Below are positions 20,304 through 27,615 of a stretch of 64,000 nt of DNA, piece after piece (position 1 is the stretch's first letter; every line of letters starts with the position of its first letter). Position numbers and translations under genes: made by a program. The notes below the pieces were generated by a model. The model was given only the letters and a program-made list of their open reading frames with translations. It did not search any database and was not told the DNA's origin. Source of the DNA: Mosigvirus mar005p1; the sequence record OZ035759.1; one strand, given 5' to 3'.

Positions 20304-20333
20304 ATAGTATCACACATCCATGTGTTTGTAAAC
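20304..20333 (-). promoter_or_regulatory. T4 early-type promoter
   Basis: Minus-sense GTTTAC, 18 bp, TGaTACTAT. Confidence 0.45.
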
Positions 20334-22420
20334 TATCCTTGGACAAATTTAAACGGAACTGATTCTAAATCCATTAAAGACGCTAACAATTTCAAACCTT
20401 TAGGTGCACTAGTTTTTTCTACAAATGAGGAGAACGATACCGGCTCATCTGATTCGATTTCACCCGTCATAGCAACCACCTCGCCTGTTTCCATGAGAAC
20501 ATCACCATCGTAAATGACAGCTTCGTCCAACTGGTCCGAGGACATAACTTCAGCTTGAATAAATTTAAGGTTGGATTCTAAACCTGCACCAGTGTCAGAT
20601 GACGCATCTGTAATTTTATTTATCTGCAAGAGAATGCCTCTAGGCAAAATAATTTCTTGCTCATTAGGGTGATTACTCAACTGTCCTGGATAAATCACGT
20701 TAACTTTATGAGCGCCATCAATAGCCCATCCAACGTTAACACGGATTTGTTCTGGCGCATGCATAGCTGTTCTTACTTGACTAGGAGAAATAGTAACACC
20801 TTCGTCATTATTGTCAATGTTAAGCTCTTTGCGAACTTCTTCAGGAGCAAGTCCAAGGGCAACGTTCTCTTTAAACCCGCCGAAAATAATAGGAGCTAGT
20901 GAAGTGGAAACATAGTTTCTGAAGTAGAATACCTTATTTTTAACCATTGCTTCGTAAATAGGCATTCTGATAGACTGAGCTCTATATAATGTTAGTCCTT
21001 CAGGTAAACGGTCTCCGTTTAAAAACGCTGAATCAAGACCATCAATAGCGCGTTTAACTTCATCTTCATCTGCAACATCGTAAAAATCTGGTTTATAGCG
21101 ACCTAACAACATATTATTAATATCGGTATACGCAGAAGAGGCATATTCACGAATAGCTCGTTTTTCAACAACAGAGTATTGTTTAGGGTCCCGATTCATT
21201 GTTATATTAAAGGTGCCTCTAGCCGATTCTCGTGCATAAGTATACATCACATTAGACAAGAACGCTGATTTACGTTGTTTCCAAGTTCTTTCAGATACTT
21301 CAGCTAAAACGTCGTCGGGCAGTTGGAAATTATCACGTCTAAAATCTTCAAACCATTCGTCTCTAATAGAGTCTGCAATTTCGTTTGCAGCTTCAACAAA
21401 AGCAGCTAATGCTTTAACAGATGTTGTTTTTTCAGTTTTAATTTTCTTAGCAAACTTTTCTAAAGCCGGCTTAATAACACTACCATAAGAAACTTCATCA
21501 GCAAATCTAAAGGATTCATCAATACGATTATAAATCTTATTTTCGATATCAGCAACTAAAGTGCCTTTTGCTGTGGATGATGCTTGGGCTAGTACGATTT
21601 CATATGCTTCAGGAAGTAATTCGGCTGTAGCCGGGCCACTAACTTCTTTAGCAGAATTTTCGTATTTCTGGAATAACTCACCTTCTTGGCGGTCAGCTTC
21701 TAAAGATTGACTTGCTGCAATAGCACGACGAGAAATTTTAGTACGAGCAATAACAGGCTTATCTTTACGTTTTTCTTCTACAGCAGCAATAGAACCAGCG
21801 ATAGCCGTTTCTTTGGTGACTTTTTCGCCGGTCTTTTTACTCACATAAACTTCGCCAACATCAGAATCTACTTTCGCGTACAACTCTGTGTTAATGTTAG
21901 GGATGCCTTTAATATCTTCAATGTTGGCATTTTTACGAACCATCATCACATAGGTGTGTTTACCTGTGAATTGATACATTGCCGACAATACTTTAAAACG
22001 ACCACCTGTTTTAGTAGAAACTAGACGAGCAAGAAGAGTTTGAAGTTGTTGTCCACGTCCTTTCAATTTCTTGGTAGGGAATCGGAACAGAACTGCATCC
22101 ATACGAAGAGCTTTAACCTGTTCATACACTGTATTGAAAATGGTGTTGATTGCATCAATAGGAGCAGGACCAAGGCCATTTTTCAATTCAGCGAGATTAC
22201 CCTTTTCAGACAGACTCATAATAACAACATGAGCGTATTTATCGCCAAGTTTAACTTGTTTTACAGCATCGCCTTCAGAAAGGTAAGAGAATAAGCGAAC
22301 TACAATATTTGTATCAACATCACCAATTTTCCAGACTTGTGGAACTTTAGCTTTAGGGTTCAAATTGACGACAGGAAGACTGCCTTCAGATTCAAACACT
22401 TCATTTAATTGTTCAGACAT
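20333..22420 (-). CDS. alt: Alt ADP-ribosyltransferase (packaged, modifies host RNA polymerase)
   Basis: 695 aa (T4 Alt 682 aa); C-terminal R / S-T-S / E-x-E ADP-ribosyltransferase triad (YRAQS, YVSTSL, NEQEII). Confidence 0.85.
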   Translation of the reverse strand: MSEQLNEVFESEGSLPVVNLNPKAKVPQVWKIGDVDTNIVVRLFSYLSEGDAVKQVKLGDKYAHVVIMSLSEKGNLAELKNGLGPAPIDAINTIFNTVYEQVKALRMDAVLFRFPTKKLKGRGQQLQTLLARLVSTKTGGRFKVLSAMYQFTGKHTYVMMVRKNANIEDIKGIPNINTELYAKVDSDVGEVYVSKKTGEKVTKETAIAGSIAAVEEKRKDKPVIARTKISRRAIAASQSLEADRQEGELFQKYENSAKEVSGPATAELLPEAYEIVLAQASSTAKGTLVADIENKIYNRIDESFRFADEVSYGSVIKPALEKFAKKIKTEKTTSVKALAAFVEAANEIADSIRDEWFEDFRRDNFQLPDDVLAEVSERTWKQRKSAFLSNVMYTYARESARGTFNITMNRDPKQYSVVEKRAIREYASSAYTDINNMLLGRYKPDFYDVADEDEVKRAIDGLDSAFLNGDRLPEGLTLYRAQSIRMPIYEAMVKNKVFYFRNYVSTSLAPIIFGGFKENVALGLAPEEVRKELNIDNNDEGVTISPSQVRTAMHAPEQIRVNVGWAIDGAHKVNVIYPGQLSNHPNEQEIILPRGILLQINKITDASSDTGAGLESNLKFIQAEVMSSDQLDEAVIYDGDVLMETGEVVAMTGEIESDEPVSFSSFVEKTSAPKGLKLLASLMDLESVPFKFVQG

Positions 22421-22477: not shown

Positions 22478-22665
22478 TAATCCACAATCGGGAGCAAAGT
22501 ACGATAAACTTCAAAATTAGGGCCTTTTTCGTACTTATCAAAATTGTCCATAAAAATATGATAGGAATCGTTATTAGGAAAATCTAATATAATCTGAGAG
22601 CAAGAGGTGGAAACATCTCCACCATCCTTCTTAGCTACAATAACTGTTTCTAAATAAGCTTTCAT
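22477..22665 (-). CDS. hypothetical small protein coupled to gene 30
   Basis: Internal ATG overlapping gene 30 stop gives 62 aa; ORF track version is 69 aa. Confidence 0.4.
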   Translation of the reverse strand: MKAYLETVIVAKKDGGDVSTSCSQIILDFPNNDSYHIFMDNFDKYEKGPNFEVYRTLLPIVD

Positions 22666-24158
22666 TATAAACCTGTCTGGGACCACGGTCCAAATACGTC
22701 TTCAAACGAATCCGCTTCTGTTTTATCAAAACGGAACCCTTTAATAATTGGAAGGAAAATACCTACAGTACCTTCACGGCCTTTAGAATGAACCCAACCA
22801 TTACATTCACAATCAGCGATACGTCCAATCAATTTACCTTCACGTGCTTCCTTCATTAGTTTTTCACGGTCTAAATCATGACGCTCGTCTAAAGGAATAA
22901 GAACCTTTACATCATCAACTGTTTTATGAGTTGTATCTTTAAACCCTGAACCGCAATCGGTTGTAATACGACGACAACGTGATACGAGTTCGACACCACC
23001 TAATTTGTTAGGGTCTTTAGAGTGTTCATAGTATCCTACAACTTCTAAAGCAATATCAATAACTTCTTTAAATTTAATTAGGTTCTTAGAGCGTTTGTTT
23101 TCCCAATACGAATCACGGTTTTTAAGGATAATACCTTCAAGACCTTGGTCAACATATTTTTTATAAACCACTTTAGCTTCGTCAAGATTATGAACTAACT
23201 GATTTTCAATTGGCTCAATTCGCTTAAAGCCTTCGGCCATATTTTCAAGAGCAGCAAAACGAACATCGTATTTCTGACCTTTAATTTTGCCATCAGAATA
23301 GACTTCATCTAAAGGAACATAGTCCCAGGCTTGAAGAACCATACCTTCCGCTTCTTTAGGAGAAATAGTCCCTTGAAGAGATTTATTTGCTAAACCATTT
23401 GAAGTGCTACGGTCCGCAACTTGTACTTCTTCGGATTCTTCATTATCACCAAATAAGAACGACAGGTCATTTCCTGAGCTCACAGCCTTTTTAATATCGA
23501 ATGAATGATAAACTAATTCACCGTCGATTAAAACCCCATTAGGGTGTCTTTCACGAGCTTCTTTAGTCATTTCCATTAGTTCATCCGCTAATAGAGTAAG
23601 ACCATGGTATTCGTTACCGGCACGAGAAAAGAATTGAACACCATCATCGCGAACTTCAGCGAAACAACGAGCACCATCTGCTTTTAATTGGGCAAATGCA
23701 GGCCATTTAATATTTTTAGTAATCAATTTCTCATCATATGCAGATGCTAACATCTGTGGTTGCAATTGAATAAGTCCAGGCCACACCTTATTCGCGATAG
23801 ACACTGAAGCACCTACTTCAAGGTCGCGCATCATTACACGACGAAGGACTTCTACATCATCGGGTTTACCATCAGCGATATAACCCATGAGCTCTTTAAT
23901 TGCAGCATTACCAGTGAGTTTACGAGTGGCTAATGTGAACTCAATAAAATCCAACATGTCATCTAATTCAAGAAGTCCATACGCTTGAGACCTTTCACCC
24001 GGTCCTGGCCATTTCTTAATATAATACTGGATACCACGTGCATATGTTAAACGATACACACGTTCAAGTAATTTGTTGTCCTTATTTTTCTTAAGGATTT
24101 CTTGTTTTGTTTTAGTAGAACCGATCGCAGCTATTTGGTTTAAAATATCTAAAATCAT
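22665..24158 (-). CDS. 30: ATP-dependent DNA ligase gp30
   Basis: 497 aa (T4 ligase 487 aa); adenylation motif KADGAR. Confidence 0.9.
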   Translation of the reverse strand: MILDILNQIAAIGSTKTKQEILKKNKDNKLLERVYRLTYARGIQYYIKKWPGPGERSQAYGLLELDDMLDFIEFTLATRKLTGNAAIKELMGYIADGKPDDVEVLRRVMMRDLEVGASVSIANKVWPGLIQLQPQMLASAYDEKLITKNIKWPAFAQLKADGARCFAEVRDDGVQFFSRAGNEYHGLTLLADELMEMTKEARERHPNGVLIDGELVYHSFDIKKAVSSGNDLSFLFGDNEESEEVQVADRSTSNGLANKSLQGTISPKEAEGMVLQAWDYVPLDEVYSDGKIKGQKYDVRFAALENMAEGFKRIEPIENQLVHNLDEAKVVYKKYVDQGLEGIILKNRDSYWENKRSKNLIKFKEVIDIALEVVGYYEHSKDPNKLGGVELVSRCRRITTDCGSGFKDTTHKTVDDVKVLIPLDERHDLDREKLMKEAREGKLIGRIADCECNGWVHSKGREGTVGIFLPIIKGFRFDKTEADSFEDVFGPWSQTGL

Positions 24159-24337
24159 TTGATATCCTCGATTTTGGTTACGGTTCTATTATAAGCCACT
24201 TCATCTAGAAGCGATTTCAGCGTTTTCTGATAAGTGGTAATCCATTTACCGAGTCCTTCAACATAATATTCTGAAATGTAGATGAACCCTTGTTCAACAC
24301 ACTCTTTAAATATTTCTGCGTCTTTTACTGAACGAAA
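24155..24337 (-). CDS. hypothetical small protein (GTG start in ORF track)
   Basis: About 60 aa; track start codon is GTG; overlaps gene 30 start. Confidence 0.35.
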   Translation of the reverse strand, partial: FRSVKDAEIFKECVEQGFIYISEYYVEGLGKWITTYQKTLKSLLDEVAYNRTVTKIEDIK

Positions 24338-24433
24338 CACCGGTCAGTCTCGAAAGAACATGTTAACATGACCGTAGTCACGTGTGCTGGTTTTGCCATC
24401 TGTAATATCATGAACTACAAACATAATTAGCCC

Positions 24434-25249
24434 TTAACAATTTATAGACCAAGTCCATTTAGACGAATCTAAAGGAAAGTTTTGAATCGTCCACCATGGC
24501 TGCATATCGGTTGGTCCTGGAGTTCGCCAAGTATACGGATTCGACGGAGTGCCAATTTGATTAGGCCATGCACCTGGACTTGTTGCACCAGATTCTTTAA
24601 GCAAATCTGCCAATCGTTTTAAAAGGTCTTCACGATCTGAATCTGAATTATGCTCTGGCGGAACCAATCGAGATTCAATATCATCCCACGTGTGTACACG
24701 TTGTGCAGTACGAGGAATGGCATCACGTTCACCACGAGCCAACCAATAAATCGGTACATTAAGAATTTCTGCCGCATGGTCACAGTGATGAGCTAAATCG
24801 TCAACGTAACAAATCACGTTATATTTTGTTTTAGCTAGTTCAAATAATTGTTCCTTTGAAGAATCATGACCACACATCATTACTTCGGAGAAAGCGCCTG
24901 GGAACAAAGCATTCAAATTAAATTGTCTATTCAATCGAGCATCAATTGAATCACCTAGCGCCGTCACGGCTACAAAATTATAGTCTTCTTTTAGTTTATT
25001 GATAACTCGAAGAGCATCCGAATAAGGCGCTAAGTAACGAATAAAATCAGAGCGATTATATTTTTCTATTAATTGTTTACCAAGGTTATCGTCGGTATTG
25101 AACAGTTTACCAGGAGAAATAAATTTTTCGTCCTGAATCATTTTTAAAATATGTTCTAATGGAAGATTATATTTTTGGGCAAAATAAGGAAGTCCAGATT
25201 GCCAACTTAAACATACACCATCAATATCGGTCAAAATAGTAGGCTTCAT
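24434..25249 (-). CDS. HAD-superfamily-like protein (T4 30.2 position)
   Basis: 271 aa; N-terminal DIDGV (HAD motif I) and later CYVDDLAHH (motif IV-like); Trp-rich C-terminus. Confidence 0.5.
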   Translation of the reverse strand: MKPTILTDIDGVCLSWQSGLPYFAQKYNLPLEHILKMIQDEKFISPGKLFNTDDNLGKQLIEKYNRSDFIRYLAPYSDALRVINKLKEDYNFVAVTALGDSIDARLNRQFNLNALFPGAFSEVMMCGHDSSKEQLFELAKTKYNVICYVDDLAHHCDHAAEILNVPIYWLARGERDAIPRTAQRVHTWDDIESRLVPPEHNSDSDREDLLKRLADLLKESGATSPGAWPNQIGTPSNPYTWRTPGPTDMQPWWTIQNFPLDSSKWTWSINC

Positions 25250-25704
25250 AGAGAGTCTCTTAATAGGTTTAACACATCAATAAATTCAGCTTCGGTTAGT
25301 ATTGTATCATCTTTTGTTAGACCACTAGCCATGCTGTGCTTCAAAATTTTTCCTTTAGAGGCTTGTAAGGCATCACGAAACCCCTTGTTTTGGATCGCAG
25401 CTTCAAAATATGCATTTGTGTATAATTCTTTCCACGCTGGAGAGTATCTTGAAAACGGAACTCCAATCCAGAAGAGGGTCCCACGGTCCTGAGCTCTAGC
25501 ATAAGCTCGTCCAGCTTGTTGGGCGGCAAGCCCGGATAACCCAAATATACGTCTTTGCTGTTCAACATTTTTCACCTTACATCCTTGGAGAAATCCTTCA
25601 AGACCTCCGAATTGAATACCATCCATAACAAAAGGCCATTGAGCAAAGTTACTTAATGCACATGACGGCCACTTGAAATTACTTCTTATTTCTAATTCAG
25701 ACAT
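25246..25704 (-). CDS. YbiA/NADAR (DUF1768)-like protein
   Basis: Block CALSNFAQWPFVMDGIQFGGLEGFLQGCK parallels E. coli YbiA GDFSNFAAWPIKVDGKTWPTSEHYFQAQK; stop overlaps next ATG (ATGA). Confidence 0.6.
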   Translation of the reverse strand: MSELEIRSNFKWPSCALSNFAQWPFVMDGIQFGGLEGFLQGCKVKNVEQQRRIFGLSGLAAQQAGRAYARAQDRGTLFWIGVPFSRYSPAWKELYTNAYFEAAIQNKGFRDALQASKGKILKHSMASGLTKDDTILTEAEFIDVLNLLRDSL

Positions 25705-25915
25705 CTTTAACACTTATAATTTCAACATCAGCCCAATGACCGTATCCAGGTATACGGTCTTCGATAGATAAATTTCTGTCATTTTTAGGCATTTTAATTG
25801 ACGTAACGTATGGTTCTAAACGGTTTTCCGCGTAATATGGAAAAACGTCGGTTACACGATAAGTAACTTCAATCATTTCCGTACCAAACAATTTCTGGAT
25901 TAATTTATTCAACAT
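25697..25915 (-). CDS. hypothetical protein
   Basis: 72 aa ORF in the gene 30.x cluster. Confidence 0.4.
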   Translation of the reverse strand: MLNKLIQKLFGTEMIEVTYRVTDVFPYYAENRLEPYVTSIKMPKNDRNLSIEDRIPGYGHWADVEIISVKDV

Positions 25916-26102
25916 GTTTCAACCCTTTAATAGGAGATAACTCTTTACCCATACGTATGTCAGAAGTCCCATCAACCCATTGAACAGCATACGCTTCATT
26001 GATAATTCCAGCGGCAGTTTTAAATTCGTTGAGAACTTTAAAAATCATCCCAGGGATTCCAACACCTTTTAATTGGACTGTTTGTGCTATTAAAAATTTC
26101 AT
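25905..26102 (-). CDS. hypothetical protein
   Basis: 65 aa ORF in the gene 30.x cluster. Confidence 0.4.
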   Translation of the reverse strand: MKFLIAQTVQLKGVGIPGMIFKVLNEFKTAAGIINEAYAVQWVDGTSDIRMGKELSPIKGLKHVE

Positions 26103-26156
26103 ATTTTTCCACTTACTAAAGAAATCATTATACTCTAATCCGTCCTTGGATGTACA

Positions 26157-26771
26157 CTACTTAATGAAATTAATTTCTACCGGATGAACAACAGGTTGAG
26201 CAGTGATATATTGAGTAATTGCTTTCATGACTAGAGCTTCAGAACCAGGATTTTTCTCAACGAATTCACGTGCTAGGTTATGAGCTTCGAGTTCACTCAA
26301 TAAACCGGAACGCTGGCATCCACGGTCTTGAGTACCCTGTTCAGATAAAAGGACTACTACATATTTTTCATCGTCGTAGGGCTTAGCCAGTTGAGCAAAT
26401 GTTCCTTTACTTCCAAAAGGAGAGTTATGTCGCCACATCACGCCGTGAGGAGTTTCAACCTTCGTATATTCGTGCGGTCCATTTTTCTTAGTTTCTTGAT
26501 GTGGAACTTCATAGACCTTAGGGTTAGGACATTCAATAAAATGCTCATCTAAATCGGTCGAGAATATTAAAGTAAAACAATTACTGAATTTACCAACACC
26601 GGCCTGATAAATTTTACCTTCAGAAGTTCTAATTTCACAAACTGAGCCGGCATCAGTAACTTCTAAAACTTCAAAAGGCTCGATAAGGTCATATGAGAAC
26701 ATGTTTTTAAGGCGTGGAGTAATATCCCCATTTTTAAAATTCATTTTATAAAAAGTATTAACTTTAAACAT
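26157..26771 (-). CDS. hypothetical protein
   Basis: 204 aa from ATG 26771 (GAGG SD); track start 26801 is TTG and lies inside a hairpin. Confidence 0.5.
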   Translation of the reverse strand: MFKVNTFYKMNFKNGDITPRLKNMFSYDLIEPFEVLEVTDAGSVCEIRTSEGKIYQAGVGKFSNCFTLIFSTDLDEHFIECPNPKVYEVPHQETKKNGPHEYTKVETPHGVMWRHNSPFGSKGTFAQLAKPYDDEKYVVVLLSEQGTQDRGCQRSGLLSELEAHNLAREFVEKNPGSEALVMKAITQYITAQPVVHPVEINFIK

Positions 26772-26783
26772 AATTTCCTCAGT

Positions 26784-26799
26784 GGGAGCCGAAGCTCCC
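26784..26799 (-). other. GC stem-loop with UUCG loop between two ORFs (RNA stability or processing element, or weak terminator)
   Basis: GGGAGC-TTCG-GCTCCC on the minus strand, no T-run. Confidence 0.4.
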
Positions 26800-26806
26800 A
26801 ATTAAT

Positions 26807-27172
26807 TTAGATATCAAATTCGTTAAGAACTACATCAAAGATTGCTTCGAGATGTTCAGGTTTAGCTCGGTTACTCAGGATATGACGAATCCAAGTTTTA
26901 ACCAGAAGTTTACGATTAACACCATTCCAGCAAGGATGAGTACCTAAATCACGCTGACGGAAATCATCATCTAATGCAATTTTAAAATTTGAACCTTCCA
27001 TCGTGATTGAAACCGTGATGCCATTTTCAAATCGCATATAAACGTAATTAGGAGTCATGCACTGTTCGATTTCACAAACTGTACCGTTTTCGTGTTTCCA
27101 TAAGCAAATAACTTCAGAAGAACCAGCGATACCGTTAGAAACATATTTACGTTCGAAGTTGATGTAGTTCAT
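26807..27172 (-). CDS. hypothetical protein
   Basis: 121 aa ORF preceded by an early promoter. Confidence 0.5.
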   Translation of the reverse strand: MNYINFERKYVSNGIAGSSEVICLWKHENGTVCEIEQCMTPNYVYMRFENGITVSITMEGSNFKIALDDDFRQRDLGTHPCWNGVNRKLLVKTWIRHILSNRAKPEHLEAIFDVVLNEFDI

Positions 27173-27213
27173 TTTATTCTCCAGATGTTTAAGTTGTTTG
27201 TTGGTACAGGTCT

Positions 27214-27242
27214 ATAATAACATAACCTGTACCAAAGTAAAC
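27214..27242 (-). promoter_or_regulatory. T4 early-type promoter with -10 embedded in a perfect 10 bp inverted repeat
   Basis: Minus-sense GTTTAC, 17 bp, TATTAT; flanked by TTGGTACAGG (27201-27210) and CCTGTACCAA (27226-27235). Confidence 0.5.
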
Positions 27243-27246
27243 TGTT

Positions 27247-27615
27247 TTATGCAACTTTAATCCAATTGTCTAAATTTAAAACACCTTTGGCTTTCATTTT
27301 TTCGATCAGGTTATCTGCTGTAATGCGTCCATTTTGATACCATGTAACATCTTCAGAGTAACCAGTTTCTTCGTCAACATATGTTTCTGAACGAATTTTA
27401 CCGGTAATAATAGTTTTTAATTCGTATGTGTCACCTGTGAAAAAGTTTGCTAACACAATTTTCCAAGAGAAATCATCTGAAGGACCTTCAGGGGTCATAC
27501 AACCTACGAACTCAAATTGCTCTTTGTATAACATCCACTGGAATTCTTTAATTTCGATAGCTTTATAACCGTCGTGGTCTTTACATTTGATGTATGAGTT
27601 CAGATTGATTTTCAT
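27247..27615 (-). CDS. hypothetical protein
   Basis: 122 aa ORF preceded by an early promoter. Confidence 0.5.
   Translation of the reverse strand: MKINLNSYIKCKDHDGYKAIEIKEFQWMLYKEQFEFVGCMTPEGPSDDFSWKIVLANFFTGDTYELKTIITGKIRSETYVDEETGYSEDVTWYQNGRITADNLIEKMKAKGVLNLDNWIKVA

Follow-up and report, generated by a model that had tools for sequence, protein, structure and literature searches.

Resistance of T-even phages to the DarTG1 system has been mapped to gene 30.3, which was renamed adfN for "anti-DarT factor NADAR" (Johannesman et al., Nat Commun 2025, PMC11825919). T4 and T2 lacking adfN form no plaques on DarTG1 hosts, and ectopic expression of the gene restores plaquing of RB69 on DarTG1; for resistance to DarTG1 the gene is both necessary and sufficient (PMC11825919). 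Purified T4 AdfN strips ADP-ribose from DarT1-modified DNA and its E36A variant does not, while variants E36A and K43A give partial rescue only; the protein does not bind DarT1, barely rescues T5 and Bas25, and offers no protection against the thymine-modifying DarTG2 (PMC11825919). Removal of ADP-ribose from guanosine by T4 gp30.3 in vitro was demonstrated independently (Toxins 2024, PMC11125620), and the T4 enzyme was found to remove guanine-ADPr and not cytidine-ADPr (Toxins 2026, PMC12945103), with thymidine-ADPr likewise left in place (PMC11125620, PMC12945103). In the methods of the Toxins 2024 study, 'residues 1-208' are given for the T4 gp30.3 construct, more than the 152 aa that the T4 gene specifies. 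Transposon sequencing of T4 returned a log2FC of -7.25 (adjusted P 0) for 30.3 on DarTG1 in Data S6 and of +0.03 in the DarTG2 table (10.1101/2025.11.20.689424). An earlier bioinformatic report had described T4-like 30.3 as a NADAR expressed alongside ARTs (PMC9503650).

Several other systems serve for comparison. The NADARs of DarG1 antitoxins, for example those of Geobacter/Trichlorobacter lovleyi (PDB 8BAT) and E. coli C7, were reported in the AdfN publication as the closest relatives of AdfN, and differ from it in that T4 AdfN fails to neutralize DarT1 in uninfected cells (PMC11825919, PMC11125620). YbiA of E. coli (PDB 2B3W) is the product of a host gene whose operon is under LexA control, and it has been reported to act in riboflavin metabolism and in swarming (PMC11125620, PMC12945103). 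AdfN-Bas32 (T5-like) and AdfN-Bas60 (Vequintavirinae) are, like AdfN, phage orphan NADARs that are guanine-specific and counteract DarTG1. Unlike the T4-type protein, they were acquired independently from other NADAR branches, and they function both in uninfected cells and for unrelated phages, whereas the T4 type is fully effective only in T-even infection. AdfA (gp61.2), AdfB (ICP1) and AdfM (the tk.4 macrodomain) share the purpose of escape from DarT and none of them is a NADAR; AdfM, a macrodomain, is directed at the thymine-modifying DarTG2.

The stretch of DNA analyzed here (the window) comprises 64,000 nucleotides of Mosigvirus mar005p1 (OZ035759.1) and carries at 25246..25704, on the minus strand, the orthologue of T4 gene 30.3, a predicted phage-type NADAR DNA ADP-ribosylglycohydrolase of 152 aa. 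An ORF had been placed at these positions by a sequence-only reading of the window, and sequence and ORF list agree on its bounds, with ATG at 25704 and TGA at 25248-25246 on the minus strand. In the program-made ORF list the gene starts at a GTG at 25713, three codons before this ATG; the T4 annotation starts gene 30.3 at the ATG, and we follow it here for adfN. Over the full 152 residues and without gaps, the window protein is identical to T4 gp30.3 at 147 positions (97%), and the five substitutions (K11R, A67S, I80L, I120V and M125I) are all conservative. With 24 synonymous and 5 non-synonymous codon differences from T4, the gene appears to be under purifying selection. The order of genes on the minus strand, 30.4 - 30.3 - 30.2 - 30.1 - 30 (ligase) - alt, matches that of the T4 reference AF158101. 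Thus the window allele shares with T4 AdfN the slot between 30.4 and 30.2, overlaps of 8 and 4 nt with these two genes, residues E36, K43 and H123, and the C-terminal helix; it differs in the five substitutions and in flanking genes that are far more diverged. We are highly confident that the gene is adfN, and that it encodes an orphan T-even NADAR ADP-ribosylglycohydrolase that would reverse the DarT1-catalyzed ADP-ribosylation of guanine in phage DNA.

Conservation across the cluster is uneven. Over 22665..27615 (minus strand), identity to the T4 locus (L001) is 97% for gp30.3, 93% for gp30.7, 75% for the ligase, 70% for gp30.2, 64% for gp30.5, 53% for both gp30.1 and gp30.4, and 37% for gp30.8; at the DNA level adfN is 93% identical to T4 and the surrounding stretch ~79%. 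The far greater divergence of the flanking genes marks the window phage as a different relative of T4, and the pattern suggests either a recent exchange of adfN between T-even phages or a much stronger constraint on adfN than on its neighbors. The best DNA matches to the region are ~97% identical (vB_EQ1, vB_Eco_F27 and others), with 696 phage records matching. In the slot of the 95-aa gene 30.6 of T4, the window carries an ORF of 204-214 aa (26157..26801, minus strand; phrog_17531, E=2e-146) that has no Pfam match and whose counterpart was found, among 80 viral loci, only in L005. A further ORF lies within adfN itself: 30.3', 75 aa in another frame (25341..25568, minus strand), known from the T4 annotation and matching Pfam DUF2883 at E=4e-42. 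Of 15 T-even alleles, 14 keep its frame open over 76 codons; some (L002, L007) lack the ATG, and in L012 a stop codon interrupts the frame. On account of the lost ATG and this stop its coding status is doubtful, and 30.3' as a real overlapping gene is not supported. Some database proteins (P0014, P0016) are frameshift chimeras of the 30.3 and 30.3' frames.

The sequence-only reading had likened the N-terminal block of the protein to the core of YbiA (DUF1768/NADAR). This block, CALSNFAQWPFVMDGIQFGGLEGFLQGCK, comprises adfN residues 15-43 (C15-K43, ALSNF...EGFLQ..K; 25576..25662, minus strand) and aligns to the YbiA stretch FSNF...EHYFQAQK; the YbiA block quoted in that reading, from FSNF to AQK, agrees with PDB chain 2b3w_A over the stretch displayed. 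In a single pairwise BLASTP comparison the adfN protein is identical to the YbiA fragment at 19 of 53 positions (E=4e-7), and overall the two proteins are ~20% identical. Searches with the single sequence failed, phmmer against PDB returning a chance match only (E=1.1), the NCBIfam models no match, and Pfam NADAR (PF08719) no match at E up to 1, so that the link had to be sought with a family profile and by structure prediction. To this end 110 homologues were gathered, of which 73 full-length ones were aligned with the window protein (74 sequences). Searched against PDB, a profile of 75 gp30.3 relatives gave YbiA (2b3w) as its sole match at E<0.01 (E=0.0067, in the N-terminal block), and 13 of the 74 gp30.3-family sequences singly match PF08719 (best E=1.5e-7). 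Membership of PF08719 by sequence is therefore transitive only, running to NADAR and YbiA through these 13 relatives and the family profile. The HMM search for NADAR/DUF1768 proposed in the sequence-only reading thus had a divided outcome: PF08719 is without a direct match, and the sister family PF08010 (Phage_30_3) is matched over profile positions 1-138 of 138 with a score of 231.6 bits (E=2.9e-69; cutoff 36). In phrog_652, which has 296 positions, the protein matches positions 126-272 only. Several gp30.3 homologues are named "YbiA (DUF1768 family)" by JGI.

Structure prediction, likewise proposed beforehand as a comparison with YbiA, bore the likeness out. Significant structural matches of the predicted adfN fold are limited to NADAR structures, with scores in the fold comparison of 12.1 for the Phytophthora NADAR with ADP-ribose (8bau), 11.4 for E. 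coli YbiA (2b3w) and 9.6 for the DarT-associated NADAR of Geobacter lovleyi (8bat), the next best, unrelated structure scoring 4.1. The YbiA fold, a helical core with small flanking β-hairpins, is present in the adfN model, and the resemblance of the adfN protein to YbiA exceeds chance. That the match to YbiA is nearly as good as those to DNA-acting NADARs, and that the gene occurs in about 1,500 phage records, were counted in favor of a main role that is metabolic or signal-quenching, in which soluble N-glycosides (ADP-ribose-derived immune signals, or intermediates of the riboflavin pathway, the latter being reported substrates of YbiA-type enzymes) are the substrates and activity against DarT1 is secondary. 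We hold such a role to be very unlikely, as DarTG1 is the one condition under which a phenotype of T4 30.3 was found, and there it is complete (log2FC -7.25), T4 can do without the gene on plain K-12, ADP-ribosylated DNA is a substrate of the T4 protein in vitro, and the phage clade has His where YbiA-type proteins have Glu.

Among the residues invariant across the 74 aligned sequences are A16, L17, S18, N19, F20, F25, E36, G37, F38, Q40, K43 and H123. The catalytic residues E36 (codon 25599-25597, minus strand) and K43 (codon 25578-25576, minus strand) align to the YbiA EHYFQAQK motif (E-x-x-F/Y-Q-x-x-K), whose Glu and Lys contact ADP-ribose, and H123 (codon 25336..25338, minus strand) adjoins model strand 120-122. 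At this last-strand position His is typical of phage gp30.3-type NADARs, Glu of the YbiA type and Asp of the DarG1 type (PMC11125620, PMC12945103). Besides its Asp, DarG1 possesses an extra N-terminal helix and sheets, in contrast to the window adfN, which has His and consists of the core domain only. The genomic setting differs as well: DarG1 antitoxins adjoin darT1, whereas the window adfN is an orphan flanked by 30.4 and 30.2, with no DarT-like Pfam match among its neighbors at 20.3-27.6 kb.

The C-terminal helix (~residues 138-152; 25249..25293, minus strand) is intact and appears in the model as a helix at 138-151. Its state bears on whether the window allele could be an inactive relic like that of RB69, in which a frameshift removes the last 15 residues of 30.3; T4 AdfN cut at the RB69 truncation point has reduced activity (PMC11825919). 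Truncated or frameshifted 30.3 is common in databases, as proteins of 86-126 aa and as chimeras with the 30.3' frame, which would favor the relic reading. The window allele, in contrast, has its full 152 aa, its C-terminus LTKDDTILTEAEFIDVLNLLRDSL is the same as in T4, its last 32 residues are identical to those of active T4 AdfN, all invariant residues are present, and the ratio of synonymous to non-synonymous changes points to purifying selection, so that we give a relic practically no credence. The window adfN is apparently a well-conserved, functional allele of a characterized counter-defence gene, and we infer its activity from the 97%-identical T4 protein. Full length together with E36, K43 and H123 makes a simple test for a functional adfN allele.

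Upstream of adfN lies gene 30.4 (25697..25915, minus strand; an ORF of 72 aa, phrog_2042), whose stop and the adfN start share 8 nt (ATGTCTGA), and the junction sequence holds no Shine-Dalgarno-like sequence before the adfN ATG. The 8-nt overlap occurs in 13 of 14 T-even-type loci, with no upstream ORF detected in the remaining one (L006); among gp30.3-family loci outside the T-even group, a recurrent small upstream ORF was not found. In the T4 transposon data 30.4 is mildly depleted on DarTG1 (log2FC -1.79, adjusted P 0.014) and unaffected on DarTG2 (-0.03), and in the rows of the DarTG1 table from gene 26 to its end, 30.3 and 30.4 alone have an adjusted P<0.05 (10.1101/2025.11.20.689424). 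The main text of the preprint does not mention 30.4, and its authors make the case that polarity is not widespread in the transposon data (10.1101/2025.11.20.689424). Since an 8-nt overlap lacking a Shine-Dalgarno sequence would mean less adfN translation when 30.4 is disrupted, the simplest reading of the mild depletion is probably translational coupling, with 30.4 delivering ribosomes to adfN. Beyond this, gp30.4 might be a T-even-specific helper for T4-type AdfN, for which speak its place as the sole other significant gene in those rows, its indifference to DarTG2 and the authors' case against widespread polarity. We consider a helper unlikely, given the overlap without Shine-Dalgarno sequence and the conservation of gp30.4 relative to T4, 53% against 97% for AdfN. 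If true, a gp30.4 helper would explain the failure of AdfN in uninfected cells and in T5 and Bas25 infections.

Downstream, the ATG of gene 30.2 (24434..25249, minus strand) overlaps the adfN stop in an ATGA, the plus strand reading TCAT at 25246-25249, just as the sequence-only reading had described. T-even-type loci retain this overlap, the first base of 30.2 coinciding there with the final base of the 30.3 coding match. The same reading had called the neighbor HAD-like, and rightly so, the gene encoding a capped HAD-fold phosphatase-like protein of 271 aa with a Rossmannoid HAD fold in which motifs I (DxD), II (T/S), III (K) and IV (DD) are all present. The assignment rests on fold and motifs because a profile search of gp30.2 against PDB sequences gave no significant match (best E=0.29). 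Some sources name gp30.2 a 5'(3')-deoxyribonucleotidase or an FMN phosphatase. Its C-terminal tail of ~50 aa is disordered and highly variable, and the family appears confined to T4-type phages, adjoining the DNA ligase gene in 18 of 18 carrying loci.

Gene 30.2 is co-transcribed with and coupled to adfN, but T4 does not depend on it to resist DarTG1: insertions in it are neutral on this system (log2FC -0.12; 10.1101/2025.11.20.689424). Among 80 viral loci, ~18 have 30.2 no more than 6 kb downstream of the NADAR; these are all T4-type loci with the ligase close by, and the ~60 more distant gp30.3-family loci lack 30.2 at this range. As a T-even partner of AdfN it was rejected on the neutral insertions and this narrow co-occurrence. 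Clustering of the ORFs within 4 kb in the 80 loci revealed no other conserved neighbor beyond T-even synteny. Insertions in AdfA and NudE are neutral on DarTG1 in T4 as well (10.1101/2025.11.20.689424), and because of such neutrality gp30.2, Alt, AdfA and NudE are set aside as non-redundant T4 helpers. Scanned for promoters and terminators, the interval 24.0-29.5 kb gave 20 promoter-like hits versus 15.7 +/- 4.1 in shuffled sequence, and 3 terminator-like hits versus 3.6; these counts do not exceed the shuffled expectation, and no inference on promoters or terminators in this interval is drawn from them.

Some 2.8 kb downstream of adfN and on the same strand, the window encodes an Alt-type ADP-ribosyltransferase of 695 aa (20333..22420, minus strand; PF03496, E=1.3e-27). 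Across T-even-type loci Alt shows 38-73% identity to the window copy and thus varies much more than adfN does. The targets of Alt-type enzymes (PF03496) are arginines in proteins. The proximity of alt favors a reading in which the NADAR acts as an eraser of modifications made by ARTs of the phage itself (Alt, and ModA and ModB from other parts of the genome), trimming self-inflicted ADP-ribosylation or RNAylation. Against it, the bonds that NADARs have been shown to cleave are N-glycosidic bonds of guanine, and the T4 enzyme spares thymidine-ADPr and cytidine-ADPr; in none of the examined loci outside the T-even group does a NADAR lie near alt; and T4 insertions in alt (log2FC -0.01), modA and modB are neutral on DarTG1 (10.1101/2025.11.20.689424). 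We regard a self-directed eraser as extremely improbable. The sequence-only reading had taken Alt as a sign that ADP-ribose chemistry is a theme of this genome; Alt is indeed encoded in the window, and given the neutral alt insertions in T4, its tie to adfN is thematic only.

The reading we prefer, AdfN as an enzyme that repairs DarT1 damage, can be set out as follows. The DarT1 toxin of DarTG1 would place ADP-ribose on guanine in single-stranded phage DNA, blocking replication. AdfN would be produced from the early/middle 30.x cluster, probably by way of translational coupling to the upstream 30.4, and would cut the N-glycosidic bond between guanine and ADP-ribose, by which normal DNA is restored and replication may continue. 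Its mode of action is thus envisaged as enzymatic and directed at modified DNA, rather than as binding of the toxin. The candidate ADP-ribose hydrolase with an anti-DarT role put forward in the sequence-only reading corresponds to the demonstrated activity and role of T4 gp30.3, to which the window protein is 97% identical (PMC11825919, PMC11125620). Its protection against DarTG-like defence needs narrowing, since in the T4 data it holds for the guanine-modifying DarTG1 and not for the thymine-modifying DarTG2; AdfN, being specific for guanine adducts, is of no help where thymine is modified. The failure of AdfN in uninfected cells and the weak rescue of T5 and Bas25 indicate that the picture of a self-sufficient enzyme is incomplete, and the T4-type protein appears to have a further, T-even-specific requirement.

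The identity, activity and phenotype of adfN were already published in 2024-2025, and in this respect the present analysis brings the field nothing new. The practical value lies in annotation. By tblastn a gp30.3 homologue is found in 1,510 of 50,697 phage records, 600 of these at 95-99% identity and 780 below 60%, the latter in Klebsiella, Aeromonas, Acinetobacter, Vibrio and other T4-superfamily phages. Some metagenomic relatives (P0029, P0031, P0034) are 201 aa long and have an N-terminal extension of ~55 aa. Among 25 records sampled across the tblastn ranking, 19 label the gene "hypothetical protein". Recognition of a functional adfN is useful for predicting the growth of a T4-like phage, such as a therapeutic candidate, on DarTG1 strains. 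For the biology of these phages, it appears that they have recruited an enzyme of the bacterial antitoxin type to undo an immune attack at the level of DNA.
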